Origin: Botryllus schlosseri
Taxonomy: Eukaryota
Direction of reading: 5' to 3'
NCBI GenBank assembly: GCA_051294905.1
Contig: CM119372.1
Location: forward strand, 12,154,001 to 12,218,000
Length of the DNA: 64,000 bases
The notes under the pieces are model-generated. The model was not told the DNA's origin. It did no database searches and saw only the letters and a program-made list of their open reading frames with translations. The position numbers and the translations under genes are program-made. This document shows positions 17,133 through 63,488 of this stretch, one piece after another. The first letter of the stretch is position 1. Each line of letters begins with the position of its first letter.

Positions 17133-18569
17133 ATGGCATCAACTGCGCAACAAGTGAGGCCCACTGCCGTAACGAAAGCGGCAAGTTTCCAGGAAACAAA
17201 GCGTTATCTTGCGATCGCCCTTTCTAGCATTGCGTACTGTCGCGGTCTCTTCTCGGGCGAAGCTTATAGCGAACGAAGAATAGATTCCATGAAGGTATGG
17301 ATTCTCCGACGTAACAGCCCGGCAGACGGTTTTGTTACATGGCTGACAAGCGTCTATGATGCCCTGGAGAAGGAATATCTGAAGCAGCTTATGCTCGCCA
17401 TCACCTACAAAAGTCCAACGAGCGGGCAAGACATGTTAGAAACTTACACCTTCGGATTCTCCTACGAGGGAAGGCAAGTGATGACCGATGTCCAGCTGGG
17501 GAGTAATGGTGAACCTATCAGATCGACACCAATTACTGCCAAAGAAACCAAAGCATGCGCGCAAAAGTTCATCACAAAGCTTTCTGGGATCGCATCGTCC
17601 TTTGAAGAAATCGGCCCTACATTCTCCATGTCAATGCGATTGACTTACTATGATGATAAAACGCCCGCGGAATACCAACCTTTCGGATTTGAGGCGGGCG
17701 ATCTGGCTAACGGATTGGAAGCTACCAGCGACTCTGAAACTCATATCATCGGCACGATGCAGCAAGGATTTCACAGTACCAGTCTTGTGATTAGAAGGGG
17801 TCAGATTATAGCGGCGCCAACGCAGATTCCGGTGCCCGAGAAACAGCAAAACGATATGGATTGTCAACCGCAATCTCTACACGCTACTCCATTGCAATCG
17901 GGTACTCAGCAAATAATCCGTTGCCCCTGCGGATGTGACGAAATTGACGGTCACGTCATTCAATGTGGATCATGCTCACTGTGGCAGCATGCCGTGTGTT
18001 TTTGCGTATGCCTTGATAACGCACCCGAGATTCACACCTGCAACGCCTGTGCCGACCCGTCGATACCCAGCCTTTATCCTACGGATGCTACTCTTTGCGA
18101 ACTGAGTGAAAAACGCCTCCAAGAAATTTGCACCTGGCGTCGGGCTCTTGAAGCGTGTTTCGCTACCACCAGCATCACAGTCACGTCGTTGAGCGTGCGT
18201 CTTTCTTGCGAAAAAAAGTTGGCGAGGAAGATTGTCAATCAAATGACGCAGGAAGGAATCGTAACGACCAATAAAAATAGCAAAAGCAAGAAGGATATCA
18301 ACATGGCGAATCTTGAAAAGGCATTTTACCGAGACATCCAAAAACCGTCCGCTGACATGCGGCAGCAGGCTTTCGAGGCGAGGAAAAAACTGGCGTCGCC
18401 AGCATATTCTTCTGGATCGTTTCATTCCCAAAACGAGTGTGACAGAACGCCGGGGAATTGGGCAGAATCTCCGAGGCGAGCCAAAAGAAGACTGGGAATT
18501 AGTTCGCAGGAAAGCGATTTCAAAGTTCCCACATTGCCGAAGAGGGTCAAGTCTAACAAGCGTTGTTGA
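17133..18569 (+). CDS. HORMAD1: Meiotic HORMA-domain protein (HORMAD/Hop1 family) with PHD finger and winged-helix region; single-exon CDS, 478 aa
   Basis: HORMA motifs IAYCRGLF, VYDALEKEYL, ETYTFGFSY, MRLTYYDDKTPAEYQPFGF. C4HC3 PHD finger RCPC-x11-QCGSCSLWQHAVC...HTCNAC at about 17920-18050. Helical/wHTH segment WRRALEAC...LSVRLSCEKKLARKIVNQMTQEGIV. Basic tail SQES...PKRVK resembles a closure-motif tail. Confidence 0.9.
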   Translation: MASTAQQVRPTAVTKAASFQETKRYLAIALSSIAYCRGLFSGEAYSERRIDSMKVWILRRNSPADGFVTWLTSVYDALEKEYLKQLMLAITYKSPTSGQDMLETYTFGFSYEGRQVMTDVQLGSNGEPIRSTPITAKETKACAQKFITKLSGIASSFEEIGPTFSMSMRLTYYDDKTPAEYQPFGFEAGDLANGLEATSDSETHIIGTMQQGFHSTSLVIRRGQIIAAPTQIPVPEKQQNDMDCQPQSLHATPLQSGTQQIIRCPCGCDEIDGHVIQCGSCSLWQHAVCFCVCLDNAPEIHTCNACADPSIPSLYPTDATLCELSEKRLQEICTWRRALEACFATTSITVTSLSVRLSCEKKLARKIVNQMTQEGIVTTNKNSKSKKDINMANLEKAFYRDIQKPSADMRQQAFEARKKLASPAYSSGSFHSQNECDRTPGNWAESPRRAKRRLGISSQESDFKVPTLPKRVKSNKRC

Positions 18570-19205
18570 TATGACGTGGTCTTTCTGTTCTTCTTGAGTT
18601 ACGTTCTTCGTTTATTTGGAGATTTAGGATTTTTTTGGCATGGAGAATTTCCTTTGTATTAACGAGTCTCAGATCTCAGGTCAATGTCTCGATCCTGTTC
18701 CCGTGCCGTTATGTAACTCGCGACATCTCAACGCTAAATATTACAGGGACGCTGGCCGTTTGTATATCTAGTCTTCGTTAGGGATTTGCGTAACTCGTGA
18801 TTTTGTCATGATCCGTCGAGAGAGGCGTGTGTTGTCACATTGATATCATTGTCAAAATTTTTGCTAGCGTCATATCGCCACCGATTTTGTGATCTTTGAA
18901 CAGATATGCAGTATGTATAATTAATTTGAAGCAAATCTGTATATGGTTCTCTAACTTTAATTTCATTTCGCCCCACAACACGATCTTTTTGTATTATGTT
19001 CATTATTGTTCATTGATTACTCCTACCATATTATACACTTCAGATATTGCTGAGTGCTAAATAATAAAGTTATTGACACTACAGTTTCAGTACATTGAAT
19101 TTGACCTTGCAAGGGATTTGATACTAGGTTGGGAGCGAACTCGAATCGAACTCGATCCGAAGGCGAGATTGACATACGGTAGGGTCGTCTAATCGTACGT
19201 CCTGC

Positions 19206-19485
19206 GAGTGTTACCATATTTTGAGATCCGAGAAAAAGAAAACTTATTTTGACAAGAACATTAACAGAAATTTAGAAAGGATGTCTTTAAGAAAACTGGT
19301 GATTGCTCGTAGGTTGACTAAAAAAATACATTACAACCCATTTTGGACTTGTATTTTTGGGCTGTCTCTACGAACTCGCCTGGCAATTAATCAACGTAAT
19401 AAAAGAGGACGGAAGAATAGGACGTTTCGGTTTTCTTGAAATAAGAGGACAAATATTCTTAAAAGAGGACATCTGGTAAGTCCTA
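19206..19485. mobile_element. Degenerate Blackjack-like hAT MITE
   Basis: Ends GAGTGTTACCATATTTTGAGATCCGA and GAGGACATCTGGTAAGTCCTA are the reverse complement of the termini of the element at 41822-42775. Confidence 0.6.
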
Positions 19486-19685
19486 CCATAAATCAGTCCC
19501 CCCCCCCCCCCCCCCGAGCACTGACACCGTCTGCTTACAACAATTGTAGGATTGTTGACGTCATTGCCCGAAGCCCGATATAATTATTAGCCCTATGGCT
19601 GTCTCCTTAGAAATATATCGGTATCGCCCTTTTCAATGACGTCACCACTACTAATAATTTGCTCCAAGTATGGGTTGCATTTAAA

Positions 19686-19830
19686 TCATCATCATCATCA
19701 TCATCATTGGTTTATTAGCAATTTTATCGGTTCAATACCCCACAAAATGCGATACAATGAAAAGATATAGGAAAGTGTCGAAGCGACTTGGAGCAGTCTA
19801 TTGAATCATACACCCAACACCCAACATGTT
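19686..19830 (-). mobile_element. 3' end of a LINE/SINE family with a (TGA)n tail
   Basis: Minus strand ends ...AAAATTGCTAATAAACCAATGATGATGATG. The same sequence recurs at 20440-20600, 42207-42475 and 53424-54880. Confidence 0.7.
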
Positions 19831-20439
19831 TAATACAAGGGCCTTGTTTAAAACATGTTTTGCTATATTTTTTTCGAGCCATGACGTGTAGAATATTCTA
19901 TTGTGACGTCATCGTGGATTGACATTGACAATTGAAAATATAGAGTAATAGGTCCATTGACGAAACATCTACGTACTATAGCTGTTGAACCCACTATTCG
20001 AGGGTTCCAACCATCCCATACGGTATAGCCTATACCTCGGCTATACCGGATGGTAATCGTCCGTATGCTCATATTGCTCATACAGCATGTTTTTCGCAAA
20101 GTATTTACACAGTTATGGTATAATTATACAACTTAAAATAACACAATTTTCTTTAAATGCCTTTGTTTAAAACATGTTTTAATCAAAGCGTTTTGTGGTG
20201 TTAAATGCAACCCTAGTTTCAAGCGAGAACTGTGGGATTGATTTACCGAGAGTCATAGGAGTGCACTCATAAGTGAAAATGAGTAGATTGTGTTTCCTGA
20301 AAGTGCAATTATACCATAGTCAGAGGTGGTCAAAGTAGTTAAGAAAGCTAAAATCTACTCAAGTACGAGTAGAAATATTCCTATTAAAAGTATCTTGAAA
20401 CTACTTCAAGCAGAAGTAGCGACGCTAAAATCTACTCTT

Positions 20440-20600
20440 TGTTGGTTTATTCGAAATTTTATCAGTTCCATACACCACAAAAATGCGACACAATGAAAAG
20501 ATAGGAATGTGTCGAAGCGACTTGGACAAGTCTATGGAATCAGACACCCACCTTGGCCCAGGCGATGTAAAGAGGAGGCACACTGAACTGATTGAAAGAC
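20440..20600 (-). mobile_element. Copy of the same retroposon 3' end
   Basis: TGGTTTATT...TTTTATCAGTTCCATACACCAC...GACACCCACCTTGGCCCAGGCGATGTAAAGAGGAGGCA is shared with the other copies. Confidence 0.7.
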
Positions 20601-20939
20601 TACTGCAAGTAATGTCCACGGTCCATTCCTTAGTATATTTTCACTGTACCGCAATCTTGAGGTGTTTTCAATATTTGAAATTATTTGGAAACCGATATTT
20701 TCCAAAAGTGGTGTATTCGAAGTCTATGGGCAATGGACCAATCCAATGAAGTGTGACATTTGACGCCATTCAGTGGTCGTCATGTCGCCGCGATTTGTTT
20801 GCATGTTTATCGAGTAGAATTTGTGAAACTGTCGTTACTGCCACCAGAATCCGTATCATTTTACCCTTTCCATCAATTAAAGATGCCATAAGAATTGCAC
20901 CAAAGTGAAAAGGAAGAAACGAGTTGAACTGACTTGGTG

Positions 20940-22715
20940 CTACAGGGTTGGTGCGATGACATGCAAAATAAGGTCAAAAACATGCAAAATAAGGTCAGTC
21001 GCGACATGCAAAATAAGGTCAGTCACATGCAAAATAAGGTCAGTCGCGACATGCAAAATAAGGTCAGTCCGCGCATAAATCCAAATCTATACTTCAATTA
21101 CAAATCCAACTTTTTTCTTATGAAAAATAAATTCAACATATCTTTCCTGTATAGCAGCCTACTTTCAACATTGAAATTCCTTATCTATATCCTAAATCCT
21201 AAGATGTTTCAATCAAAAGATAATCATGATTATCTTGATTACGAAGTCAGTCGCATGTAGAATATTATTATCAGTCCGCGCATAAATCCAAATCCACAGT
21301 TCAATTACAAATCCAATTCTTTATTTTTATGAAAAATAAATTCAAAATATCTTTCCTATATAGTAATTTCATGTTCGAGATTCCTTATCTATATCCTAAA
21401 TCTGAAGATGTTTCAACAAAATGTAATCAGACGATTATTACGATTACGGGGTGAGTCGCATATAGAATATTAACAGTCCGCGTATAAATCCAAATATTTA
21501 CTTCAAATCCTACTTTTTTCTTATGCCACTGACCTTATTCTGCAATCTGCATGTCGCGACTGACCCTATTTCGCATGCCACTGACCTTATTTTGCATGAG
21601 ACTGACCTTATTTTGCATGTCGCGACTGACCTTATTTTGCATGCGGCTGACCTTATTTTGCATGTGACTGACCTTATTTTGCATGTCGCGACTGACCTTA
21701 TTTTGCATGTGACTGACCTTATTTTGCATGTGACTGACCTTATTTTGCATGTGACTGACCTTATTCTGCATGTTGCGACTGATCTTATTTTGCATGTGAC
21801 TGACCTTATTCTACGGGGTTGGTGCGATGACATGCAAAATAAGGTCAAAAACATGCAAAATAAGGTCAGTCGCGACATGCAAAATAAGGTCAGTCACATG
21901 CAAAATAAGGTCAGTGGCGACATGCAAAATAAGGTCAGTGGCGACATGCAAAATAAGGTCAGTCACATGCAAAATAAGGTCAGTCACATGCAAAATAAGG
22001 TCAGTGGCGACATGCAAAATAAGGTCAGTCACATGCAGAATAAGGTCAGTCACATGCAAAATAAGGTCAGTCGCATGCAAAATAAGGTCAGTCGCTAGCA
22101 AAATAATCTATAAGGTCAGTGGCGCAAAGAAAAAAGTTGGATTTGAATTAAATATTTGGATTTATACACGGACTGTTAATATTCTAGATGCGACCAATCA
22201 CCTCGTAATGGTAATAATCGTCTGATTATATTTTGTTGAAACATCTTCAGCTTTAGGATATAGATAAGGAATCTCGAACATGAAATTACTATATAGGAAA
22301 GATATTTTAAATTTATTTTTGATAAGAGAAAGATTTGGATTTGTAATTGAAATATGGATTTGGATTTATGCGCGTACTGATAATAATATTCTTCATGCGA
22401 CTGACTTTCATAATCAAGATAATCATGATTATCTTTTGATTGAAACATCTTAAGACTTAGGATATAGATAAGGAATTTTACTGTTGAAAGTAGGCTACTA
22501 TATACAGGAAAGATATTTTGAATTTCGTTCTCATAAGAAAAGGAGTTGGATTTGGAATTGAAGTATAGATTTGGATTTATGCGCGGACTGACCTTATTTT
22601 GCATGTCGCGACTGACCTTATTTTGCATGTGACTGACCTTATTTTGCATGTCGCGACTGACCTTATTTTGCATGTGACTGACCTTATTTTGCATGTCATT
22701 GCACCAACCCTCCTC
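20940..22715. mobile_element. Composite foldback-type element built of 21/24-nt tandem repeats in inverted arrays around AT-rich cores
   Basis: About 35 units of CATGCAAAATAAGGTCAGT(CA/CGCGA) in four arrays (forward 20960-21070, reverse 21525-21810, forward 21831-22100, reverse 22585-22700). Terminal AGGGTTGGTGC(G/A)ATGAC inverted at both ends. 8-bp direct repeat ACTTGGTG at 20932-20939 and 22716-22723. Confidence 0.85.
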
Positions 22716-23448
22716 ACTTGGTGAAGTCGATAAATCAAACTCCCGCCTTGGGCTATTAGTGTAATATATTGCCTCTGATAGACTGCACTATTGCACTTGG
22801 TCGCTTCGACATCCTATTTGTTAATTACATGTCATTGTGTATTCAAGTTGCATATTGTATTGACGATATTGTGTGTCCGCGCAGGAAATCTAAATCTGTA
22901 GTTAAAATCCACATTTAAGGTTGTTTTCCATCGTACGCAGTCCTTCCGAAATCACATGAAATTACAGCTACAAATTTTTGAATTTGTTCGTTCCTTATGG
23001 TTATTCTGGAAAAATACAAATTCAAGTTGCAAATCAATTTGTGTTTTAATTGCTCATTTCAAAATCCAGACCCAGATTATAAAATATACTCTTACCATCG
23101 TCTTGAAATCCAAGTCCATATCGTGGATTCACTCTTTGTGTTCAAGTGCAAGACTATAATCTACAAATTTAATATCGGTGCAGCACGAACTTTTGATATA
23201 TAATTTTGCACTCAGGCTGCCAGCTATAAGATTACCATGCCGTCCTTCACCTGGACATAGCCCACAACATATTGTTTGTATCATTCTTGTGATGTTTTGG
23301 TTTTCATCTGACAGAATGCACTCCATCAAAGTTGTTGCGAGGATAATCTGGAGATAACTGCATCGAGTTCTTGGTGTGCTTATTTTTCATTGCCAATGTG
23401 AAGCATATAATCAGCAATCACACTCTTATAGATTATTTCTGGACAAGC

Positions 23449-24867
23449 ATGTCCGATCAAGTTGTAACGAAACTTCCTCACCAGATTTTCACCAGAAAAG
23501 ACTCGCCGAAGCACGCCACTAACTATCTGGAAGGCAGACCTGCTGCATCAATTACCGGAGCACCGGTTGTTGTTAGTTTTCGCCGATTCATTAAGTGGGA
23601 CCCATGCTCCGAAGAAGTGCCGGGAATAAAGAACAGGGACCTGGTACATGCTGTTGCTGCGCTATATGATCAAGCTTTGCCTGATGTCACTGAAGACGTA
23701 ATTTACGCTACCATATGTGAAAAATTCGCTCGGACTATTATGATTTTACAAGATGCTAGTGAAGCACTGGAGTGCTTCAAGCAACGGGCATTACACAAAT
23801 TACAAACTCAACATATGAGCATTGCAGATGACTCTGTATTGTCTAATCAAGATAACACTCATTCAGCAAGCGGTGATAGCACAGATTTTGACGAGCAATT
23901 ACAAAACGGAGCCTCATCTATACCGGAAAACACGGTGACTCTATCCGCCGCCAAAAGTGACGGGGAACCAGAAGATAGCAGGTTTTCCGATGTATTTAGT
24001 GATATGGACACATCCGATGAGGAAGAGGACGAGGATGAAGAAGAAGATTTCACAAAAGGCGTCGATGAATTTTTACAGGATGTAAAAGAGAGGCAACGGA
24101 AAAAGTTGGCCTGGATGGATTCTATCACTAAGAATAACTGTTGCGGTGAGCCGCATGATTTGATAGGTATTGAACACAGATTAATGGGTTGTTTAACATT
24201 TGATCGTATTTACCCCAAACGGGGGCATAAAGTTATGCATCTTGCGTTGATAGCGGTACGAAAGAGATTTCGTCATATGTTAGTTGGTAAATTCCTCACC
24301 GATCTTATTCGTAGTCCGTTGATTTCGGGCAAATATGATGCGATCGTGGTTAATGCCGACCACAAAGCTACTGGATTTTTCGAAAAACAAGGATTCAGTG
24401 GAGACGTACTTCTCAACAGTAAATATGAGGAGATAGGCGATACGTGGTATAACTGCAAACGGATGTGCTACCTTCCTCCTTATCAGTCCTTATCTGACAC
24501 TGACTTGCCTATGAATCGTACTGATGAAATAAATTATAATTCCGCGTTGGAAGCCCTGGATTTAAAACAGATGGAACTGGACTATGCTTTGCACCAGGAA
24601 AGGAGCCTGCAAGTGTTTCAAAGCCAGGCTCTGATCATGGAAAGACTTCGCAAAGAAGTGATTTTGTTACGTGCCAAAGTCTCTGCGCAACAAGACACCA
24701 TCGAAGCCTTGAAGACAGAGAACTATGCGGTTCGTGAAGAAAAATATAACTGTGAGAAGGAATTTTTAAGGTTGAAGTTGAAGTTCCTTACAAATGCTGC
24801 TGGTGATTTAACGCTATTCTCTGATAACGATAGCTGTGGTGATATAGGTGATGAGCAAATTGGTTGA
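23449..24867 (+). CDS. Single-exon protein with a split GCN5/PCAF-like GNAT acetyltransferase fold, acidic insert and C-terminal coiled coil (first ATG at 23449)
   Basis: Long open frame. ALYDQALPDVTEDVIYATICEKFARTIMILQD, RLMGCLTF, HLALIAVRKRFRHMLVGKFL and IVVNADHKATGFFEKQGFSGD parallel the recalled GCN5 HAT segments (QLPRMPKEYITRLVFD, RVIGGICF, EIVFCAV...QVKGYG, LTYADEYAIGYFKKQGFSK). Confidence 0.75.
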   Translation: MSDQVVTKLPHQIFTRKDSPKHATNYLEGRPAASITGAPVVVSFRRFIKWDPCSEEVPGIKNRDLVHAVAALYDQALPDVTEDVIYATICEKFARTIMILQDASEALECFKQRALHKLQTQHMSIADDSVLSNQDNTHSASGDSTDFDEQLQNGASSIPENTVTLSAAKSDGEPEDSRFSDVFSDMDTSDEEEDEDEEEDFTKGVDEFLQDVKERQRKKLAWMDSITKNNCCGEPHDLIGIEHRLMGCLTFDRIYPKRGHKVMHLALIAVRKRFRHMLVGKFLTDLIRSPLISGKYDAIVVNADHKATGFFEKQGFSGDVLLNSKYEEIGDTWYNCKRMCYLPPYQSLSDTDLPMNRTDEINYNSALEALDLKQMELDYALHQERSLQVFQSQALIMERLRKEVILLRAKVSAQQDTIEALKTENYAVREEKYNCEKEFLRLKLKFLTNAAGDLTLFSDNDSCGDIGDEQIG

Positions 24868-25517
24868 ATTTTTTGTGAGAACAGGTTTGCGTTGTCAGTG
24901 ACAGTATTTGGCATGCACTCTGCAATCAGAACTGACTGACAGTACCATCTTTTGCTCTGTTCTGTTTTTGCTGCCAAAATGCTGTTTTGTGAAAATTTAC
25001 CGAGTTTTGCTAGCAAGTGTGTCGATCGAACCCATACTAGCACTGTGTTTTACCTAAATTTGTTGAAAATTATTACTATATTTACTTGAGTAAATATGTC
25101 TACCTTCCTATATTGGTTGTTGCCTTTTCATGCTTGGTTCATCCATTAATTTATGTATTATAAAGATGAAAGATTGATTTTCATTTCACATACGTAGTGA
25201 TTTTAGTTTTTTTTCAGATTTTTATATGATATATTTTAGAATTTCATTACTGTGATGGTTTTTCATTTTGTGCTGTAGAATTCTGATCTTGGTAAGGACT
25301 CTGTTTGAAATAATGTTAAGTCTAATCTGCTTATGTGCTCTTGATCTTTCTTCTGAAATATTGTGGCTATTTAATAAAAGTAAATTAATCGTACACACTA
25401 CACGGTATTTAGATAAAAGGTATATGTTGCGTTTTTGACATTCATGCCTACGGGTGTTATGCATTTTATAACAGAAGGTATATTTATTTCAGCGTACTAA
25501 CCTGTTAATTATCACAA

Positions 25518-28151
25518 ATGTCTCAACTGTCACAGCGATCTAATGGCCAAAAAATACGAGATTGGACAGACCAACGATGCGAAGATAAATACCAAAGTAT
25601 TGCACCCAAAATCCTTCGCGAAATCAATGAATCTAAATCAAAGGAGGCGCTGGAACTCTGCTCCTTGTTACGTACAAAACTCCTTCGCTATGTTAAAATC
25701 GATGAACTCGGCGAGGATATTCTAAACACGGTCACTTTGCGCCTGTGTCGCGTTTTTGATGAAGCTTTGGAAAAGTTACCAGGAAATTTGGTTGACCATT
25801 CGTCGCTGACCATACCAATACTGACAGACCTGTTGAAGGATTTGATAGAAGTTTTGGAATGTTTCAACGGTTTTATCTTACATCTAATGGCATTAGCGAC
25901 AGAATGCGCCAATGATCTGGAACTGCTGAACATTTTTGAAATCATGAGCAACGCCATCGATATTATTAAAAAATCATATCGACACTGTCAAAGCAGTGCG
26001 AAAGATTATGGAGATTTCTTCAAGCACGCAAGTGGACTGTTGGGGAAAGTGTTCAAAATCACTTATGGATTGCAAAAAAACTTTGGATCTATTATTTCTA
26101 AACTAAAAGCAACTCCTGAACTTATCGTGTCGGAACAAAGTAAAATGGCGGTGAAGAATGTTTGTCAAAGTCTACTATCCATCTGTGAGATTACGTGTAA
26201 GATTGATAATTATCCCCTGGTATTGACTTGGAATATGATGCTAAGGTTTATGAACGCGTTCAAAGATATTGTGAGTGAAGAAATAGATGCAGGTTGCTAT
26301 GTGACAATGATATCATGTAACATCAATGAATGTGTCGGCTACTGCATTCAACTGCACCAGCAAAGCAGTCACCTGCTAGACGCCGGCGACATTGCCACCA
26401 AAAAGGCCGTACATCAGTCTTTAAAATACTCCAAACTTTTGATGTCTGCATTTATCGAAATGGTCAGAGTTTTTAATGTAAACTTGACCAAGGAACTATT
26501 ACGTTTGCTCACGGCATTTTTCCATGACTTCAACGCCTTGTATGAGTTACGAGATTCAGAAATTGATAGCGGCAAAATGAAGTCACAAATGAATATTTTT
26601 AAGCAGTTGGGTGTCTACGAAACACTAATCGGTGTGCTGGTTGATGACGAATGCTTCATGAAGTATGTTTGTGTGCATTCTTCGCAAGAGTCTGACTATG
26701 GGTGGTTTCATGTTTGGTTGTCTATTATAAAGCGTTTGTTGCGTAATCCTGACTCGCGCTTGCAGTGGTGTCAAGAACATACCGGCGACAGGGCAGCGGT
26801 CTGTGCGATTGTGCGGTTGATGATAGAATGTGTATCATCGGAGAATTGTGCTTTAGTGTCGCATTTTAACGTTGACGTGTCATTATACGATACTGCCTTG
26901 ATCCACATTTGTGCGTTAGTGTCGGAATTGCCGTCTGATACCTTCGCAGCCATGGAGGAGATGCTTTTTGCATTCCTAACCTCGTACTCTCCCACAAAAA
27001 GTGTCTTAGCCAGCGATGTATTTGTATTCTTGTCAAAATTATCCTTGTCGATGGCCGAACATTACATATCACTTTTGAGGAATATTCTTTGTTCTATAGC
27101 AGAGAGCAATGAAATCTCATTCCCGGTGCTCACTCTGACATCTGTGTTGAATAGAATTGTGGGGTCGTCAAAGGCTGGCGCCGATGCGTTATCGAATTCT
27201 TCCATCACTCGGCCGATATGGTATGCGTTTTGCAAAAGCGCTGAACTTGATCACAGCGCCCTCGAAAATAATGTTTTGAAAATATCGCAAAAATCTGAAG
27301 TTTCCTTGAGCGATGTTGACAAATTAACGAAGGATACGGCATTGTTGGGGAACTGTTTCCGAAATTTTTCCTCATCCGGAAAGCAAAAGGCTATGGTAAA
27401 GCGATTTTTTTTATTGCATGTTGACATTTTTTTGAACTTTGAAAACTGTAAAATCGGATTATGGGATTCAGTAAATTTCAGTAATTTTGTCATGAGAATT
27501 TTGATCGCATTGAAATTCTTCACGCAATACGCCAATGATACCGACAAACCTAGAGTATTACAATGCTTGGAAATGATCGTCAAGCGTAGTTCTGCATTGT
27601 CGGCAAAACTCGGAGTAATTGACGTTCTCGCACAGTTTGGGAGCTTCCATCCGAAAAGCATTGAAGCCGTCAGTTTGATTTTTCGAAAACTGATAGCAGA
27701 CCAAAATTGGAGGGTGCGCCATGACGCTGCTGACACGCTAATCAAACTGTCGCTGCGCATGACAAAGTCAAGTTTACTGGAAAGTTGCGCTAGTAATCCT
27801 GAAGTCTCGCAGACGATCGAGAACCACATCACATTTCAATGCGAAGACTCGACTTTGCGCGAGGGACCTTTCAGCAGACAAGAAAATGAATATATGTCCA
27901 AATTCGACAAATATGTAACATCATGGACAGAGAAGCGATGTAAGCTTTCTGAGAATTTCAGTGAAAAGTGCACGTCTTCCAATGGTGCCTGCAACGTGAG
28001 CCAACGCATATCGCAGATTAAAGCTGACGTTCTCGCGTTGAATCACTCGTGTCAAACGACCGATAATACTCAATTAAGTGTGGAGGATTTGCAAAATTTA
28101 TCAACCATTAAGGGCACTTTAGACCAGCTGATGCATCGGTTTCAAAGTTAA
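25518..28151 (+). CDS. FIRRM: FIGNL1-interacting regulator of recombination and mitosis (C1orf112/FLIP, DUF4487); single-exon CDS, 877 aa
   Basis: IIKKSYRHCQSSAKDYG...LLGKVFKITYGLQK and SLYDTALIHICALV...VLASDVFVFLSK match recalled C1orf112 blocks (IIKSTFVHCKNSESVYS...LFKEAYSLQK; LLAMDAWCFLAR). All-helical HEAT/ARM-like composition. Confidence 0.85.
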   Translation: MSQLSQRSNGQKIRDWTDQRCEDKYQSIAPKILREINESKSKEALELCSLLRTKLLRYVKIDELGEDILNTVTLRLCRVFDEALEKLPGNLVDHSSLTIPILTDLLKDLIEVLECFNGFILHLMALATECANDLELLNIFEIMSNAIDIIKKSYRHCQSSAKDYGDFFKHASGLLGKVFKITYGLQKNFGSIISKLKATPELIVSEQSKMAVKNVCQSLLSICEITCKIDNYPLVLTWNMMLRFMNAFKDIVSEEIDAGCYVTMISCNINECVGYCIQLHQQSSHLLDAGDIATKKAVHQSLKYSKLLMSAFIEMVRVFNVNLTKELLRLLTAFFHDFNALYELRDSEIDSGKMKSQMNIFKQLGVYETLIGVLVDDECFMKYVCVHSSQESDYGWFHVWLSIIKRLLRNPDSRLQWCQEHTGDRAAVCAIVRLMIECVSSENCALVSHFNVDVSLYDTALIHICALVSELPSDTFAAMEEMLFAFLTSYSPTKSVLASDVFVFLSKLSLSMAEHYISLLRNILCSIAESNEISFPVLTLTSVLNRIVGSSKAGADALSNSSITRPIWYAFCKSAELDHSALENNVLKISQKSEVSLSDVDKLTKDTALLGNCFRNFSSSGKQKAMVKRFFLLHVDIFLNFENCKIGLWDSVNFSNFVMRILIALKFFTQYANDTDKPRVLQCLEMIVKRSSALSAKLGVIDVLAQFGSFHPKSIEAVSLIFRKLIADQNWRVRHDAADTLIKLSLRMTKSSLLESCASNPEVSQTIENHITFQCEDSTLREGPFSRQENEYMSKFDKYVTSWTEKRCKLSENFSEKCTSSNGACNVSQRISQIKADVLALNHSCQTTDNTQLSVEDLQNLSTIKGTLDQLMHRFQS

Positions 28152-28309
28152 TATGTCGAATGTTGCCCACCTGAATTTCCGTGTCTCACTGCCAATTATT
28201 TCAATGCATTTCTTGTTATTTACTAACCGAATCTGGATTTTGTTTTGATGCTTCTTATTCTTACATTTGTTCAATGTTTATTCGCCAGCTGCTAAATAGA
28301 CACAGACCA

Positions 28310-31300
28310 ATGAAACCGTCGTTCAATTTCAAATTAAACCATAAGGTCTATCCGCGTACTGTAACGGTCGGGAAATATGACGGCGAGCATACTTGCCTCA
28401 CCGCCGCCACAACCGCAGGAAAGGTGATCATTCATAATCCGCACTCGAAATCTGTTGGTGGGGACCGAATCACTGTGGAAGGAAGTGGCATAAGCCTTCT
28501 GAATATAAATCAAGCAATCACATCTTTGTGTGCAGGTATAGTACAAGCTTGATTTCATAATCTGAGTTTTTTTTCCATATCCAAAACTCTTGACGGCATT
28601 GCCATTTACCTGCTTAAATTGCCGTTTCGTAATGTACAGGCCACATAATTTTACGTACGGACATTAACTCATGCTGTTACGGTATTTCAAAGCGTTGGAT
28701 CACATCAAAACGGCCTTGGCGCCTCTTTATCACTTGTGAGACCTAGTGAATGCTTATCTCATTTTCAATGCTCAACAATTCAATCGATGCTCATCGTGAA
28801 TTATATGAGTAGCACTGATCATGATTATTTATAAGGAGATTTGTAAATTCAGTCCAGCGAGGCTCGTTAATGTCATATTTTGGTGCGTGAATTAGATATT
28901 GTGATCGCAATTTCTACCTCGAAATAGATTTGTCGTTAATGTCATGAATTCTGAACTAATTGTATTTCAGGTCGGCTTGACGGCGACGACAAGCGAGATG
29001 TGCTTGCGATCGGCACTGCCACCAATTTACTGCTTTATGACATTCACAATAACAAAGATTTGTTCTATAAGGTTTGATTGGTCAGGACATCATTTGATTT
29101 TTTCCGCGCTAATGCCGTCTTTACCCAAGGATGTTCCTGATGGTGTGAACACCATGCAGATCGGAAGGCTAGGAGATATCGACACACCGCTTGTTATTGT
29201 GGGGGGAAATTGCACGTTGCAAGGGTTTGATTTCAACGGCGATGACAGGTATTGCTTACTAATACATTACTGAAATTTTAGGCATTTCTGAAGAGATGAT
29301 TTCATATAATCTGTGATAGACTTGGAGCTGAGCAAATCCAGAATCTAAGCTTGACAATTATCGTTTCAGATACTGGACTGTCACAGGTGATAATGTCAGT
29401 TCTTTGGCACTTCTGGATTACACAGGTACTGGGAAAAACAGACTTGTGGTAGGATCTGAGGACTACGATATCAGAGTGTTCCAGGTTTGTTTGTTCTTTT
29501 TCAAGACTGTTTCGGACATCGATTGATGCTCGCAAACCTTGCAGGAAGATGAAATCATATCCGAGATCTCCGAAAATGATGTCGTCACCATGCTGTCTTC
29601 AATCGATGGCAGTAAATATGGGTATTCTCTTGCAAATGGAACTGTGGGAGTGTATGACCGGACAGCCAGGTACGTGGCATAGTCACTAGGCTTACTTGAA
29701 GTGTTCTGAGTTGGTCGAGGTGTCACATACTTTTGCAGTAAATCGATAGCGACTACTTCCGAATTTGCAACATGCAACTTATTCAAAATGACTGATGACC
29801 AGGGTTGTAATGACTCGAGTCGCAATTTATTGTTGACTTGACTTGGCCCAAGTCGTTTTCTTAACAATGGAAAAAATGGAGTTTTGCATGATTCGACCAA
29901 GTCATATGACTTTATTCAAGTCTCGTATATCAGGACCGATATTTGAAAAATAGGCCAGAAACTATCTTTTGAATAAGCTTGCTTAAAGTGAGAAAATGGG
30001 TATAATATAATATTATTATGAATCGCAGGCCTTTGATGTCACTCAAAAGTTGCACAGAAGTGAGTTCAACCTGACTGGAACTCGATACTGAACAGTTAAT
30101 ACAATGACTTGGACTCAGACTCGAGTCTTAACACTATGACCCGGACTTGATCCGTTGCTCCCTGACCTGGACCTGGTGGTGAATTGAAAATGACAGTCTT
30201 GACTCGAGTCAAAACTATAAAAGTCGAATTGACTTGTGACTCGGAACCTTGTGACTTAGTTACAGCCCTGCCAATGACACCACAATATCTTTATATGTAT
30301 TTAGTGACCATGATACGGAGGGGGGGCAGTTTTGAAGAAGTTTTGCTATAAAAGCTGTTGAGCAATAGTAGAAGTAGTCTAAAACATAACCACTTGAGTA
30401 AGTAGTGCAGGTAGCCAAATCTTATTTGAGTAGATCTGATGATCACACAGCGCTAGACGTTGATGAAATACTCGTGCTTCTTGAACATATGACAGCATCG
30501 CGATACGTTTTATCCGTAATATATCAAGGTATTGGAGGGTGAAGTCAAAAAGCCAAGTGACTGCGATGCACCGCTTCGATATTAACGGGGACGGCGTGCC
30601 TGAACTGATAACCGGATGGTCGAACGGAAAGATCGACGTCAGAAACCCCAAAACGGGAGACGTCCTGTATAAAGACACAATGTCGAGCGCCGTGGCCGGG
30701 ATTGTGGATGCGGAATACAGGATGGACGGGAAAGTGCAACTTATCTGCGTGTCGGTCGACGGCGAAGTCAAAGGATACGACCCCATCGTGGGAAAGGCCG
30801 CCGAATCAATCCTCGACACCGCCAAAGCACAGGTGCTGCCTTTGATTGTAGTGATGCTGTCGCAATTGCGTTTACGACGCGTTGATTTTGTGTCACAGGG
30901 GGAGTTACGCGAACTGAATCAGCTGAAGCAGAGTCTGGCGCTTGAAATGCAAAACTACGAGGCGGAGAGAGCGTCTGAAAAATCGTCAGCGTTGGTATCG
31001 CCATCGGAGAAGTCTATGGTATGAAATATGAGTTTGTCTTTTCGGTACTGGGCTTTGGAGATGGCCGTGATTTTATACAACTGCACCCTGACTGTTGATA
31101 AAGTTATGCTCCGAAGTGTGACTCGTGACTCATATGTACCTCATGTCGTGTTGGTCAGTTTGATGTAGCGACTAGTTCTCCCAATTGTTTTGTGAGGGTT
31201 GTAATGACTCGACTGTGTCACGATTTTTGTTGACTCGACTTTACTCGAGTCGTTTTTTCAAATGCGTAAAATCACTCGACTAGTACTCTCGGGTCATTGT

Positions 31301-34300
31301 TCATGACTCGAACCAAGTCATGTGACTCGAGACCAGAACGGCCAAGACACATTTCATTGTAACGCCGAAGAATAGTAAAGTTACCACGTTATTGGATTTC
31401 GTCTGTCAGTCCTGATACTCGTGAAATCGGCCAGAAACTGTTGAGATAGATGAAAATTACTATATTATGAATACGAGCCATTCTATATCACTCGAGCAGA
31501 GTTGATAAACGTAGAATTGTAGATTGATCTGGATTGAACCGTGACCATAATGACTTGGACTCGGACTCGAGTCAAAACACTGTGACTTGTACTCAACCCT
31601 CTACTAGCTGACTTGACTCGGTGGTGAATTGAAAATGACACCACTTGACTCAAGTCAAAACTATAAAAGTCAGATATACTTGTGACTCGGGACCATGTGA
31701 CTTGGTTACAACCCTGTCTTTTTTTTCTATTGTAGGATGCCATTTTATGTGTCGGTCATATTGACAGTAATTCTGTTACGACATAGCCCAAATTTGAGTC
31801 AAATTTGCTTTAATTATCGTTTGTTGGAGCTACCTGTATGGCTGTACGTTAAGCATGGAATCTAGAATAACACTTACTCACAACATTTTGCACATGGCAT
31901 TTTTGGTATCACTTCGAAATTTTGAAAGATGGTGTTTATTCTCGTGGCCTTGCTCATATCATCGTACGCACTTGATCGCGTAATATATTCATTTTACCAT
32001 TCACAGGCTGGCATGATTCCAATCAACACTGAGCTTAAGACCAAGTTTCTCATCGCTCGAGATAGCGAGACGAATTCAGCGCACATCAAACTGGTGATAA
32101 CTACTACCGCCGAAGATGTCGTCATTAGAATGGCAACGGTATTCGCGGAAGGGATTTTCGAAGGCATGTACCGACCTTATGAAAACGTAACATATGCGAC
32201 ATAATCAGAATCCAGTACAGGAATCAGTTGGCAACCAAACTCACACATGAACATAAACAAGTGGTTAAATGTTCACGGAAATGAAGTTTCTCTGATTTGA
32301 CTGTTAGAGCCTGTTTGGAATTAAAGTATTATTATCACAGCTACTGGATAGGACTGATTTCTGTCTGTCTGATTTCTGTAGGCGGCAATTGAACTCTATT
32401 TTTGTCGCTGTTGGTTGACTTACACTCTACTGTTTGTGTACTCAGTTCTGCTGAGCTCTTACTGCTGGCCAATGCATTCAGCTTACTCCAACTAATCCAT
32501 TTCTTTGTGAATAGCGATGGCGTAACATACCGGTATCAAGTATAGATAACACACGATTGACTTATGCAAAATCTCAGGTGAAAGCATCGTCATTCATCCT
32601 GCTCCGAACAAAGTGTCACCCTCAATAGAAGTCCCTCTGCTTCCGATAAAAGACGTGGAAGTGGAACTTCACATTAAGGCATATATTGGACCGAGGAACT
32701 CGCAATCATTTCATGTGTACGAACTCACGAGGAAGTATGTCAATGGGTATACTTGCATGGTAAAATATAAAATGAGAATTGGGTTGGTAGAGAAGTTCCA
32801 AGATCCCAGGAGCAGTATCTGGGTGTTTATGTCTTCATATGTGCCACGACGTCAAAAAGATTGACAACCACTGCTATAACGGTTGGTTAGTCAGCATTAT
32901 GCCAATTGTCCAAGTATGGGATTGATTTTTTCAAGCAAAATCCCTTCGCGTTTTCATCGTTATCAAATATAATGCTATTCATTACTTACACTCTCTTTCG
33001 GGCAAAATTAGTGGCTTCGTCAACCGCCTTTCGCACTCTCTCAACTTTGGTAATTCAATGCGGCACTCCCCTCTAATTTTATGCTTTGCCCGTTCAGTCT
33101 ACCGAAGTACTGCATGTACTCCTACGTACCGACTGCCCTGCCGAAGCCAAGCGGTAACGTAACCTTCGCCCTGAACGAGCGACTGGCGCGCATCCTACTT
33201 TGGCTCAACAAAGCGTTTTTGCTGTTGGACGACGAAGGCGACATCATCAACATCAGTGTTGCGGATGAGAGCAAGGATTTCGATGTGAACTTCATTCTCT
33301 TGAGAGGAGGCGGATCTATCGTCCTGAATTTTGCTGTTGGCGGTAAGTGTGCGACTTTTGTAGCTTTAGAGCAGGGGAATTCCACTTTGCCCATCTTCGG
33401 ACAGCATAAGTCAGAGGTCTCAAACACGCGGCCCGCGAGTCCATTTTCTGCGGCCCGCGAGCGTAATTTGGATTTAGAAGTATTCGACAACATTGAACTG
33501 TCATATATCATTTTCTTATTTGAAAACTGGAAATTCGCCCCAAAACCACTCCAGAAGCTTGAAACTACTCATCAAACTTCACTATTACATCACTTTCAAA
33601 AGTTACCACTGAATACTTCGGCGATTGGAAATTTCTATCGCTAGGGCACAGTCATCATTATATTCAAGTTGTTTTAGATCTGTTCCAGTATTCGAAGGTA
33701 AATCTAACGCCGATTTAATTTGACATAGGTAATGACATGATCAATAGTTTTGTTATCAGGAGTATACCCGAAACCCGGATTAGGCCGTACTGCTCCAATA
33801 ATGCTCTGATATCAGATCAAACTTTGTAAAATTCTAAAATATTCTACCTATAATTGTGACACATCAAATTTCCGCCAGCTGCAAAATTATAACCCGACAG
33901 CTTTTACGATGTCCTGATGCATTTGTACTCTCGCATGGTGTCTACAGCAGCCATGCCAAGCACAGCAACAATTTTATTCAAATGTTTTAAAATGCGATAT
34001 TTTCGTGCCAAGCGTGAATTCACAATAGTAAATCACATATTAAAGATGCGTGTGGCATGTCAGTCTGCAAGGTCCCGTCAAATAAGGCCTACTCGAAAAT
34101 ACATTGAATTCCCCTGTTATTGGTGCTGCTGCCCGTGCGCCATGAAAAAGTAGGAGATTGGCCCGCGAGTACATTTGAGTTTGAGACTTCTGGCATAAGT
34201 GATATTATTTTTAGGGCTGGGAGTGATTCGAATCTATTCGATTAACTCCTTATGACGTCTTGGGTCAAGAGTAGTGATGACCTCTTATGCAACCACAACG

Positions 34301-37300
34301 AGATGAGTGTCAATTCTCTACCACTTGAAGATATTTCCAACAATATCTACTATGTGAAATGTCATTTCCCGCTAGCGTGTGTAGCTTTGTGGTACGACCA
34401 ATGTAGGTTTCAAGGCTTTCATGTTGGGGAAAAAAACATCGAAACTCTTCTCCTTGTTGAAACCGTATAATTTCAGTACTCCAAAGAATTGTCTTTCACT
34501 ACTCGAGTCAAACCGTTAGAATCAATACTCGAATCATGTGCCCAGCCTAATTATTTTTGAAAATCTGGAGTAAAGAGACTCTGAAATTCTTTCTGGATTG
34601 TGATATTTTTAAGACTTGTACTTGAGCAAACCATCCAAGGCAGGGGAGGATGGGTATATGAACCTTCCTATTTCGGACGCAAGGATGTGAAATAACTATA
34701 AGATGATGAAATTACTTTTGACTTCGTGCAGACGCTATTAGACTAGATCAGTGCTTTTCAACCTGTGTGACGGTTCGCACCTGTGCGAATGAAAAAAATT
34801 GCAGTGCGAATGACGAAGGTAGTGCGAATGGTGCGAATGAAAATCCGGATCAAGTGCGAATGAAAACCGTGAATAATTGTTAACATTTCTGACGTGGAAT
34901 AATTCAAATAAACCTAATAGGAAATTTAAGATCAGTTTAACTTTTATAGTTGCGACGCAATTGTAAAACTTAATACGACGCACCACTCATCGTAGTCCTC
35001 ACAAGCCGTAGTGAGTTAATATTCCCGCACTCTAATTATTACGTAACAAAAAGCCTGGTTTGAAGCTGTTGTAGTGGCAGTATAAAGATCTCTAAAATCT
35101 CTATATTATATTGGCAGACATACAGTACATCATCTGAGCCCGAGACAGGCTGGACAAAATGACGTCAAATTGACTTTCTGCTTTCTTTCACTAAACAATC
35201 ATCATATTTTCGTAATAACTGTTCGATTTGCGCGAGGCACGAGGATAGTAGTAAATACCATCATTACAGACTCACATTTGCAAGTTACTGTAACGCAAAT
35301 TTTACCCCTTCAAGGGTAATTACAGTATGGACCGCAAAGGGTATAATTTTGGGTCTACACGGTGCCAGAGTTATCTGTTAATATGTATGTAATATTTATT
35401 GAATTTATTGCAAAAAATCCTGCTATCGTTTCTACATATCGTATAGCCAATAAGCGAGACACGCTTGAGAATTCATGATAAGATTTGTCCGACTGTCTTT
35501 TTCTGGAAAACATGGTCTAAGACCGTTGGGATGAACTAGTATAGGCCGTAGGGGTGTGCAACGAGCGAGTTCAGGCCTATGAGACTCATTCATTTCGAGG
35601 CCAACCCCTTTCTGCGTGGGGGCACATGAAGACGTCACGTTTTGGCAAACAAACCGCTGATAAAATGCGGTGTCAAAAACATAAGCGGCGACAAAACCTC
35701 GGTCTAAAAATTACCGATGTTGGATGGCCAAGCCATTCGAGATATGTTCCGTTGTCTGCACGGAATAGTCCCGTTCTTGCAATCTGAGTAGAGGTCGACC
35801 GATTATCGGCGCCGATATTTGGAACTTTCTCGAATATCGGTATCGGCCAATCTAGGCCGATATCGCGACCGATATTTCATATCTAACTACAATCTACCTT
35901 TTCTGAACTGATCTGCAATTCTGTATCATGTTTTGATTTTCGGGTTATCCCAAATTTCAACGAATGTTCACAATTAAGCAATAAGTCTTTTCGATTTCAG
36001 TTTTCTCGTTTGTTGTTCACCTTTCTGTGGCATGAACAAGTGCCACCTTGCCTAATATATAATATTTTTGGCGAAATAGTTCTCTGCTCCTTCCATATTA
36101 ATATCGGCCTATGATATCGGTTATCGGCCTTGTGAGCGTCGAAATATCGGTATCGGTATCGGCCTGTAAAAATCAATATCGGTCGACCTCTAAATCTGAG
36201 TAGACAGTAGTACAACTGCGATACGCAGAGGAATTTAATTCGCCCTAATTTGAAATCGCGTGCGTCAGACATGTTTTGTAGAGCTGTGTTGGGTAGAATT
36301 GTGGTTTGCGCGTTCTGTATGTCCTACATGCCCGTAAAATGTAGCATACAACTGTAATGTTATAAATAATTTCCTTTTCATTGGTGAGGCTCGGGTCGCG
36401 AGATGTCACAAACACTCAGATTGTGGTGGTAGTCTAAAAGCTGCTTTTTTACCGTTATTAAACTGTCATGAATTCTCAAGTTAGATTGAGCTAAAGAGTA
36501 TAACACACCGTATCATGAGTTAGTTGCTCTTCTCATAAACTTGCGAGACAGAAAATGGATCAACGTATCATCAGGTAGCGAGCTCTAATGTGCCTACTCT
36601 CTTTGATCGTTTTGCACCTTATGTTCCAAAGAAATATAGCAAAAGCCTCAACACAATCATGTTTTTTTTCATTCTTTCGACAGATTGGAGCCTTGCGGGA
36701 CCTTTGTGTCAGCTCTCAAATACAGTTTTGCCAGCAAGCATTTTTCACCCGCGAAAAATACGCTGTATTTCGGATAGGAGTGCAGAACAAATTTTAAGAC
36801 CTGGCCATCCATGCACTAGTAGACGTTTTTGTACAAATTCCCAACAACTTGTTAGGCCGAGAAAGGGTTATAGTGTAATAATTGGAAGCAAAACGAGCGA
36901 AAAAAGTTGCCTTCTTATTGAGACACTTGATAGCTTAAGCTAGATAGTAGCCAATTTGTTGCATATCTGAACAAAATGTTGTTAAGTAGGCCTATCTTCA
37001 TCTACTTTTTGTATAACTATTTTCAATTAGTTTGTGCGATTGAAATTTATTTTACAAAAAAAGTGCGAACGGAGCACAAAAAGGTTGAAAAGCACTGGAC
37101 TAGATGGTTTCATTCCAACCAAATCTATCATTGGATTACTTATAAACAAAATCTTGTCATGCCCGACCCAACCAGGAGCATCAGGCATCCTTGCCCGGGC
37201 TTTCAAAATGTGAACATAGTTTGTCGGCGATAATTTGGCCGTAAGGATAATTGTGCTTGACAGTTTCCGATGTCACGGTAATTTTAATGAATTCTTGAGA

Positions 37301-40300
37301 AGATATTAGTCTCTACTTTTCCTTATTCATAGGTATTGAACTAAGCTGCTGCTAGCAAAGATAATCTCTTTGAGTTTTGTGAATTTCTTGTGTAATGTCA
37401 ACTGATTTGTTATTTGAAATTTAGATATGTATGGATGTAAGTATTCAGGAGTGCTTTGCATGCTCACATTTGTTTATTCATTTCGCACAATTGCACGATT
37501 TCACGCACATTGCTTCAAACCTTGGATATAACTGGCCTGCCGATGCCAAATAAAATTTGTACCTATCACTACCAGGAGCTCAAATGCGGCATGCTGCACG
37601 CTATTTCACCTCAACGACGCAGAACAGTGGTTGTGCGAAAAAAAAGATATGTTCCTTGCATGTGTTTATATAACCTAACTCGACCTAATAAGACAGGTGG
37701 GGTGTGTGAACCATGGTTTTTCGCTTGTGATGATATGAATTCAAATCTTCTAAGAAAGGTATTTTAAATGCTTGGAATATAGGTGAGTTATAATCAAGCA
37801 TTTTTCACGCCACCAATGACCAGCAGACATTTTGAAAATCCGAATCCAGGATCCGTCCTATCGATATATGAAACAATTAACACTTTCTTCCATATCTTTA
37901 ATCCTGTTTTATCCATTTCTAAGATATTATATTCAACAGCTCATTCCAGTAATACAACTTGTTTGCTGCTATGCTGATTGCTGATACCATTTATATTATC
38001 GAAAGATCGATGCAATTATGAAAGCAATCTGTTTACTGGGCTTGTCGAATATATATATATCGACTTTTCAATTAGAGTAAAATGAAAAGGGCAAAAGAAA
38101 ACAGGAAACAAAAAAAACATCAAGATAATCAGTTTTAGGCTCGTATTAAGCGTCTCCAACGTAGGCGGTCGTGGGCGTCTTCAAGCGACAGCCCGCGTTG
38201 CGCTAGGTCAGTCTCCATTGTCGAGCGCCATGTTTTCCGATTCCAGCCACCTCTGCGCCATGGCTCCGTCGGCTTGTCGAAGGCACTGTGCAATGGAGCG
38301 AAATAGCCCGGATAAACCTCCAACACTTTTAAGATAGGCAAAACCTGGGTTCAGGGCCACTCCAATTAATGTTGTGATGCCTAGCATGCTTTGCTATGGA
38401 TGGATACTCATTGATTTTTCTCGTCCTTGATTTGACTGTATTTCAAGTTGTTGCGAGTATCAATCTCATAAATCACGTCCGCTCCAGTTTGGGTGAAGTC
38501 TTTCATTCCATGTGTCAAGGGGCGGCTGAACGTTAACTATTTGACTTGGTCTTCAGTGTAACGATTTGGAAATGTGTTTTCTCATTACAGGGCAGGCATC
38601 CATTCATACCGATGATATTGATGTTGCCGGTGACCTTATACAGAACATGGCTTCTTTTCTGGGAATATCTGACCTGCAGGTCTGTTTACTCAGGCAGTTA
38701 TATGCAATTGAACCCTATGCTAAACTAAGGACACATTCCCATATTATTTATCTTAACCCAATATTATTTGAAGTTCCTCGCCATTATGTGGTGTAGGCCT
38801 GTTTTTGTTCATTGAAGAGCAGTTTGTTCATTGTGCTTTGAGGCTGGTCGAAGGTATACGGGAGAGCTGTCTATTTGAGCTCATCCAATCTTCATACCTG
38901 TACCACACTGTGCCGGCATTCACAGAACATTATATGACATTCCTGACCGCAGCATATCAAGCTTCAGCCATGACCCCATCCAATTTTATCACTCCCCCCG
39001 CATAATTATGCAATCTTGTGTGAATTTCTGTTGTATGGTCTTTAGGTGACCGCTAATTTCCCCGGACACTTTGATCTACTTCATGATTTGATTGGTAAAG
39101 CGGGGGAACTGCATACGACACAGCAGAGACTATCGGCGGAAATGTCTGATCATTCGAATCTTATAAGAAACTTAGTGGTGAGTTGATGATGATATCTTGA
39201 AACTGTAGCGCAGGGGTGGCCAACCTTTTCGGCCAAAGGGCCACATGCAGTTGAACAACCCTTGAGCGGGCCACCGGCCGCGTTAAGCGTGAAAATTTTT
39301 CAAACTATATAAGTCAATAATAGGTCAATAATGTTGTTAGTTGAGTCTATTGCGGGTCTGCTGTATAACGCTGCGCTCAGTTGGCAAGGACTGGACCATT
39401 CGTCACCTGGACATATCGATATCGAAAGCTTCGGCCAACATGCGGCAATCATTTTGTGCCTAGGTTTCATCGTCGACAGTCTTTCTGTGAGCGCAAACGC
39501 AAGGTCGCATGTTGGACGACACTTTCTCTCGTGATGGAGAATATAGTTAGACTCAATCCGGCACATTAGGCGTTCTTTGATTTTCAGGAGGGGGGTAACA
39601 ATATTAAAAGCAAGAAATCGAGTGACATATTGTGAGAAGATTAAGATTTTGATAAATCTGCTGCAAAATATTCTGCTTTATTGTAATGTACGATGATCCA
39701 CCAAAAATGTGACGGGCCCATGGATCTGCCAATGCGTCGGAACTGACATTTTAGTCGTCACATCCTAAGTGTTACAGCCAGACTAATCAAATTTTTGGTT
39801 GGCCTTGCCATTTCACAATCTGGGCAATCCATTTTTGATAAAATTACTAATTTCCAAAATTACCTCGCGAGCACTCAAAACCTTCTCGCGGGCCACATCC
39901 ACGGGTTGGCTGCCCCTGATGTAGCGTATCTATAGTAACAGTTAGTGTAGTGTACTGTAGATCAAGAAATACAATTATCGCAGGATTACATGTACGTTGC
40001 ACACTCTACATAGCCTTTAGTTGGAGATTTTGTTTTCATCATTTCCACCTATCACTATATGCCACAGATTTCATATATAATATATTGTATGCAAAGATAG
40101 TCATGTAATTTGTCGTTTTTAAATTGGAAGACTTTGGTATAATTACTCGGTCCACTATCTATTTTCAACGTAAACTACTGACTAACAGGTGCAGAAATTA
40201 TAGCATCTTTACTTATCGATTATGGCTACCTTGAAAATATGAACATTATCCACCAATGTACTTCAACCGTCGATTAAGTTGAACTGAATCTGCCATCAAA

Positions 40301-63394: not shown

Positions 63395-63488
63395 GTATAC
63401 TACCTCGTCCTGGCCGTACCTGGCTTTTATGTGATGCTGCTTTAGTTAACATTTTATTAAGCAAAATTGCATCCGGCAATATACCTTA

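Follow-up and report, generated by a model that had tools for sequence, protein, structure and literature searches.

Three genes without coding introns, encoding a meiotic HORMAD protein, an uncharacterised GNAT-family protein and FIRRM, follow one another on the + strand ahead of the intron-rich ciliary gene BBS2 in a 64-kb window of the genome of the ascidian Botryllus schlosseri. Do they form a germline module, an operon, or neither? We took up this question from a preliminary description of the locus and analysed the window as a whole; all coordinates given here are window positions. Our analysis favours, at a probability of about 0.55, an ordinary ascidian operon composed of GNAT, FIRRM and BBS2, beside which HORMAD stands as a gene of its own.

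The absence of coding introns was assessed by comparing homologues with the window using tblastn. Of 16 homologues, 15 aligned with their own gene as a single high-scoring segment pair in a single frame (HORMAD 3/3, GNAT 6/6, FIRRM 6/7), the closest ones at about full length, and the exception, lamprey FIRRM, gave two segment pairs, both in the same frame. Because the homologues align in one frame, the closest over nearly their whole length, HORMAD, GNAT and FIRRM are genuine single-exon open reading frames (ORFs), and it is the coding sequence that this intronlessness concerns. The preliminary description had reported three intronless + strand coding sequences of 478, about 472 and 877 amino acids, gaps of 650 bp between GNAT and FIRRM and 158 bp between FIRRM and BBS2, and intron-rich neighbours, and in all of this it was correct: the ORFs and tblastn alignments agree, BBS2 has 13 exons, and FAR and a UAA-family (SLC35B1-like) transporter both lie in exon pieces. 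Its naming of the four genes as HORMAD, GCN5-like, FIRRM and BBS2 likewise agrees with domain, profile and structure matches. The ratio of observed to expected CpG, 0.97-1.15 across the four coding sequences, does not tell the genes apart.

Operons with these features are well described in Ciona, where about 20% of genes are reported to lie in operons and to abut without intergenic DNA (passages of PMC2760879 and PMC7986045). Passages of PMC2760879 further give a single-exon share of 38% among operon genes versus 15% elsewhere, and of 60% among the 5'-most operon genes. The locus studied here shares with the Ciona intestinalis operons described in that source (Satou et al. 2008) the common strand, seemingly close-set transcript ends and the single-exon 5' genes before an intron-rich gene. 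It differs in belonging to a different ascidian, in having two successive single-exon genes upstream and in that leader addition is predicted; the GNAT-FIRRM-BBS2 set is a candidate operon in this species alone. One promoter upstream of GNAT, presumably shared, would transcribe all three genes, and spliced-leader trans-splicing would then cut the precursor into separate mRNAs, with leader addition expected at 25492 (or 25474) and at 28288.

The ends of RNA reads bear directly on this arrangement. Raw reads from four runs that carry the same species label (24 are listed), with no tissue given, were aligned to 22730-29780 only, a stretch that leaves HORMAD outside, and the runs yielded 78, 31, 93 and 1 reads, the single read coming from run X24. 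All 93 reads of the single-cell run X15 are second mates of 90 letters on the + strand; from these properties, together with a loose end resembling a template-switch sequence (an adaptor identity that we presume), we take X15 to be 3'-tag chemistry. At the 3' end of GNAT, 10 X15 reads lie at 25356-25447 and 9 at 25456, while at the 3' end of FIRRM 33 lie at 28127 and 5 at 28239; no single-cell read lies in 25562-25797. The surroundings of these pile-ups hold at most 11 A per 20 nt, and no genomic A-tract from which priming could have started. The 3' untranslated region (UTR) of GNAT therefore reaches at least 25456 and that of FIRRM at least 28239, which is 36 nt short of a predicted acceptor at 25492 and 49 nt short of one at 28288, respectively. 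A Ciona-type operon would have under 100 bp between transcript ends; the distances given here run from the last reads to predicted acceptors, the exact ends being unmapped. Reads at 24012-24049 were set aside as partial matches to an acidic repeat.

The junctions also carry candidate splice signals. Between FIRRM and BBS2 there is neither AATAAA nor ATTAAA, a TACTAAC lies at 28221, and a CAG at 28288, the candidate BBS2 acceptor, closes a zone of 141 nt free of AG. None of the 19 cis acceptors that were measured has so long a zone (14-86 nt), and AG is lacking in 200 of 20,000 shuffles (1%) and in 18 of the 6,388 segments of 135 nt taken from the window. For FIRRM the candidate acceptors are the AGs at 25474 and 25492 (TTTCAG). 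An acceptor-like site is thus present before the ATG of BBS2 (28288), and a weaker one before that of FIRRM (25492).

Tightly packed but independent monocistronic genes, each with a promoter of its own (that of BBS2 inside the coding end of FIRRM), possibly leader-spliced and without any polycistronic precursor, might produce a similar picture. We regard this as unlikely, since FIRRM transcripts extend to 49 nt from the acceptor of BBS2 and 71 nt from its ATG, so that no DNA is left free for a promoter, and since the FIRRM-BBS2 gap combines the lack of a poly(A) signal with a long AG-free zone and a branch-point match. The operon could also be smaller and consist of FIRRM and BBS2 alone, with GNAT and HORMAD as separate units; the signals at 28288 are indeed much stronger than those at 25492, GNAT retains an AATAAA, and two-gene operons prevail in Ciona (1,079 of 1,310 in passages of PMC2760879). 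However, GNAT transcripts pass this AATAAA and end no earlier than 25456, a point 36 nt short of the AG at 25492, which makes the smaller operon a distinctly doubtful proposition.

Several observations nevertheless count against an operon of GNAT, FIRRM and BBS2. The GNAT UTR carries a canonical AATAAA at 25373, with 119 nt from there to the acceptor of FIRRM, and the AG-free zone before 25492 spans only 15 nt (55 nt for 25474). The RNA reads are mostly less than 95% alike to the window, so they derive from a divergent lineage, and in the two bulk runs more than 90% of the reads continue into unlike sequence. No spliced-leader read was seen at this low depth, and no leader-like end occurs among the 12 loose ends listed of 17; depth at the 5' ends of FIRRM and BBS2 is almost nil. 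Splice joints were absent from the RNA reads even for the introns of BBS2, which leaves this comparison with little power. Finally, passages of PMC3691228 describe a botryllid gene pair, 227 bp apart, whose downstream mRNA carries no leader.

HORMAD is likely a transcription unit of its own that merely neighbours GNAT. It falls outside the putative operon because a repeat-rich gap of 4,879 bp separates the two coding sequences and because it has its own AATAAA, at 19063; judged from the DNA alone, it does not closely abut GNAT as operon members do. Of the gap, 2,245 bp (46%) are repeats that have further copies in the gap itself or in other parts of the window. The preliminary description had left out this gap, its repeats and the AATAAA when it drew the three genes together as one tight block. 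Its suggestion of an operon is likely right for GNAT-FIRRM-BBS2, given the read ends and junction signals, and does not extend across the 4.9 kb to HORMAD. The gap contains a palindromic element of foldback type, like a miniature inverted-repeat transposable element (MITE), whose arms of 173 nt (20944-21116 and 22539-22711) are 96% complementary; it seemingly consists of two abutting copies and has subterminal tandem repeats of 21/24 nt. ORFs of 122-191 amino acids inside it were dismissed as repeat artefacts. A dispersed short repeat, 75-89% alike between copies, occurs at 19689-19816, 20442-20580, 41463-41571, 42108-42362 and 53452-53527, the first two copies lying in the same gap. Head-to-head with HORMAD, an ORF of 141 amino acids at 16183-16608 on the - strand is probably no gene, with a weak Pfam match, no usable Atlas match and a low recognition score.

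The preliminary description also proposed a germline module, which would be a selected, co-regulated set of genes whose Gcn5-like member joins HORMAD and FIRRM in meiotic recombination. Two of the three genes do have a role in recombination, the histone acetyltransferase domains of Gcn5 are the nearest match for the GNAT model (Z 14.3 and 14.0), and HORMAD retains a PHD finger, a domain predicted in its relatives to read H3K4me3 (passages of PMC12365614). However, the synteny check that the description had asked for, run in Styela and Ptychodera, found that linkage is not kept. The Styela counterparts lie on three chromosome-sized sequences (HORMAD on one of 22,500,630 bp, GNAT on 24,897,793 bp and FIRRM on 20,054,287 bp), and in Ptychodera GNAT is on a sequence of 45.69 Mb and FIRRM on one of 41.00 Mb; the comparison is confined to these two species, tells sequences apart by size and takes for granted a single assembly for each species as well as one-to-one orthology, which limits its weight for our own reading too. 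Since linkage is missing in Styela, an outcome that the description had itself named, along with a lack of co-expression, as refuting, a dedicated germline module is unlikely. The 4.9-kb repeat-filled gap between HORMAD and GNAT, and the His that replaces the presumed catalytic Glu of Gcn5 in the GNAT protein, also stand against joint action and co-regulation of the three. FIRRM, moreover, is not confined to the germline: mitotic cells need it, as a mitotic repair factor whose loss is reported to be lethal to early mouse embryos (passages of PMC10413679). Some 13-28 co-oriented single-exon triplets per genome are expected at the Ciona rates of 15%/38% (PMC2760879), which are those of another species, so that, over a whole genome, the intronless run lies within what chance would give; single-exon genes make up 38% of Ciona operon genes. 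Taken with the mitotic role of FIRRM, these points make selected co-regulation of the three in meiosis very improbable. A metagenome scan with the HORMAD alignment was uninformative on linkage, as only 1 of 219 candidates was confirmed, a distant HORMA gene (28%) on a 2.2-kb contig.

How the introns were lost can be approached through isoforms, a comparison that covered FIRRM and GNAT. Clavelina FIRRM RefSeq isoforms show one-residue internal differences at positions 278 and 640, 19 internal residues differ between Ptychodera GNAT isoforms, and internal differences between FIRRM isoforms occur in Clavelina, Ptychodera and lamprey. The differences within Clavelina FIRRM and Ptychodera GNAT imply coding introns there, and FIRRM therefore likely lost its introns within the tunicates. 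Both window genes thus show the combination typical of retrogenes, an intronless gene with intron-bearing orthologues. A single-ORF relative of HORMAD (55%), full-length on a 10.5-kb contig, suggests that this gene may be intronless in a related species as well.

Intron loss was probably by retrogene replacement: in the course of tunicate evolution, intronless retrocopies of the three genes would have taken the place of the parental copies. Germline expression of meiotic and repair genes would expose them to heritable retroposition. The presence of two recombination genes among the three would then need no pathway shared with GNAT, because germline expression would itself favour retroposition. 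The meiotic gene SYCP1 is described as a case of retrogene replacement in amphioxus and Ciona (passages of PMC5803294; review PMC5470649), and the former source, citing Kim et al. 2014, calls the process relatively common in Ciona. The window genes share with SYCP1 a meiotic or repair function, one coding exon versus splice isoforms elsewhere, and new neighbours; they differ in having no poly(A) remnant.

Two points weigh against retroposition as the route. No genomic poly(A) remnant or A-tract follows GNAT or FIRRM, a mark that old retrogenes lose. Stolidobranch genomes are reported to be heavily rearranged, even within a family (passages of PMC12448946), and because they are so scrambled the missing Styela linkage does not single out retroposition. 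Introns may instead have been lost in place, with rearrangement following. The preliminary description had offered retroposition or wholesale intron loss; loss is likely, as the orthologues splice inside their coding sequence, with retroposition the more probable route. A search for a relict leader of Ciona type gave 1 match at 3 mismatches versus 1.48 expected, using the Ciona sequence, from which the species' own leader may differ. If retrocopies they were, GNAT and FIRRM would have settled ahead of BBS2. We tentatively raise, as a possibility well short of an even chance, that the operon grew in this way: retrocopies of germline genes from different ancestral chromosomes would have landed serially before a trans-spliced BBS2, replaced their parents and been absorbed into the polycistronic unit.

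The identity of FIRRM (C1orf112, also FLIP or MEICA1) rests on a profile search with 87 matches, in which eight of the top ten clusters are named FIRRM/C1orf112 and two are unnamed or hypothetical; homology spans the full length of the named proteins, with matches in Styela, Clavelina, Phallusia, lamprey and echinoderms. The Pfam domain DUF4487 scores 20.6 bits in the window protein, below the 25-bit cut-off, and 27.3 bits, above it, in a relative (P0016). The window gene stands out as a single coding exon that evolves fast, with 25% identity to Styela FIRRM. Older and newer RefSeq versions of Styela FIRRM (P0112 and P0027) differ at 67 positions over about 684 amino acids, against 1 of 464 for the GNAT versions, which reflects either very high polymorphism or two copies.

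The HORMAD protein contains a HORMA domain (residues 22-214; Pfam HORMA 1.8e-40), a PHD finger (260-308; PHD_5 2.5e-8) and a winged helix (about 335-390), all in the expected order, and a basic C-terminal stretch is conserved in its alignment. Profile matches include HORMAD1 (8J69, 1.5e-42) and the chromatin-binding-region structures 9MYP (7.7e-39) and 9MUG (1.9e-26); the closest named relative is from Styela clava (41%). The region of the PHD finger plus winged helix-turn-helix (wHTH), at 17900-18310 in the window, is retained in this tunicate. The order HORMA-PHD-wHTH and the sequence are shared with the holozoan Hop1/HORMAD proteins that have such a chromatin-binding region (PDB 9MYP, 9MUG), among them those of sea star and schistosome (passages of PMC12365614). 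Unlike the cases described there, the window protein is a chordate, tunicate example; vertebrates are reported to have lost the region (passages of bioRxiv 10.1101/2023.03.04.531117), and the searched passages of PMC12365614 and bioRxiv 2023.03.04.531117 contain no match to tunicates.

The GNAT protein is predicted to have a Gcn5-like fold, which about 140 inserted residues divide in two and after which comes a long helix (residues 357-454), in a model with a mean predicted local distance difference test (pLDDT) score of 72. The Gcn5/PCAF acetyltransferase domain is its best structural and profile match, with 9YNV (Z 14.3, root-mean-square deviation 3.3, 171 residues aligned) and 1YGH (Z 14.0, 3.6, 160) at the top and KKT23 (Z 13.5) tied within 1 of the Gcn5 domains. 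Unlike Gcn5/PCAF, it has the split fold, His264, Leu278 and the long C-terminal helix, and it belongs to a separate, unnamed animal family, partly fused to a PARP-like domain, in which a search found 15 matches from sponge through axolotl, the closest named one from Styela clava (46%). His264 sits at the position of the Glu in strand 4 that we take to be the catalytic residue of Gcn5, the position coming from the alignment; none of 13 family members has Glu there (5 His, 5 Gln, 2 Tyr, 1 Asp). The acetyl-CoA motif A reads R/Q-x-x-G-x-G, and in the family its Arg and last Gly are kept in 13 of 13 and its first Gly in 8 of 13, the window protein (Leu278) and its two closest relatives being without the latter. 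An ADxxAxxFFxKxGF-type motif is conserved at residues 303-316, and a FxxVFSD motif is conserved in the acidic insertion of family members (P0004, P0005, P0008). A PARP domain lies above the Pfam cut-off in three of four longer orthologues scanned, and the four ascidian proteins stop short of the PARP-like domain, which the window protein lacks. The Pfam scan found no bromodomain in the window protein, a metagenome scan with the GNAT alignment confirmed 0 of 266 candidate stretches, and a limited literature search showed, among the titles listed, none relevant to a GNAT and PARP-like family. The protein is not a Gcn5 orthologue and, judging by its model, would be at best a Gcn5-fold acyltransferase.

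The BBS2 model is free of internal stops; of its 12 introns, 11 are GT-AG and one, intron 8 at 32164-32577, is GC-AG, and its exon pieces match Pfam BBS2_N, BBS2_Mid, BBS2_hp and BBS2_CtH. Elsewhere in the window, a Tim17/22/23-family gene lies in exon pieces at 47612-48768 on the - strand. On the + strand, two open frames of 208 and 94 amino acids at 44515-46172, protein-like in composition and without a Pfam match, are possibly exons of an unknown gene; cysteine-rich exon-sized frames at 54924-63600 resemble sushi/CCP repeats by eye, three of them checked and without a Pfam match; and 58223-58546 holds what is left of the dimerisation domain from a hAT transposase. Rfam gave no match in the window.

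Table 1. Features of the HORMAD to BBS2 region, in window positions.
Feature	Position	Strand	Details
HORMAD (Hop1-like, meiotic)	17133..18569	+	478 aa, one coding exon
HORMAD-GNAT spacer	18570..23448		4,879 bp, repeats 2,245 bp (self-BLAST)
Palindromic foldback/MITE-like element	20928..22711		inside HORMAD-GNAT gap
Uncharacterised GNAT-family protein	23449..24867	+	472 aa, one coding exon
GNAT-FIRRM gap, including GNAT 3' UTR	24868..25517	+	650 bp; reads and motif scan
FIRRM/C1orf112 orthologue	25518..28151	+	877 aa, one coding exon; profile search
FIRRM-BBS2 junction	28152..28309	+	158 bp; reads and motif scan
BBS2	28310..40771	+	13 coding exons, 724 aa; scripted exon model

To conclude, the arrangement at this locus is real and, for an ascidian, ordinary. 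A germline module, had it held, would have indicated a new meiotic acetyltransferase, and the linkage evidence opposes this. Two side results have emerged: an animal family, as yet uncharacterised, whose predicted Gcn5-like fold is split and which includes some PARP-like fusions, and a tunicate HORMAD that retains the PHD-wHTH region reportedly lost by vertebrates. The locus further provides a testable case for operon growth through the arrival of retrogenes. The meaning of single-exon genes at the 5' end of operons was called unclear by Satou et al. (passages of PMC2760879); if it is true, retrogene arrival would explain the prevalence of such genes at the 5' positions in the operons of ascidians.

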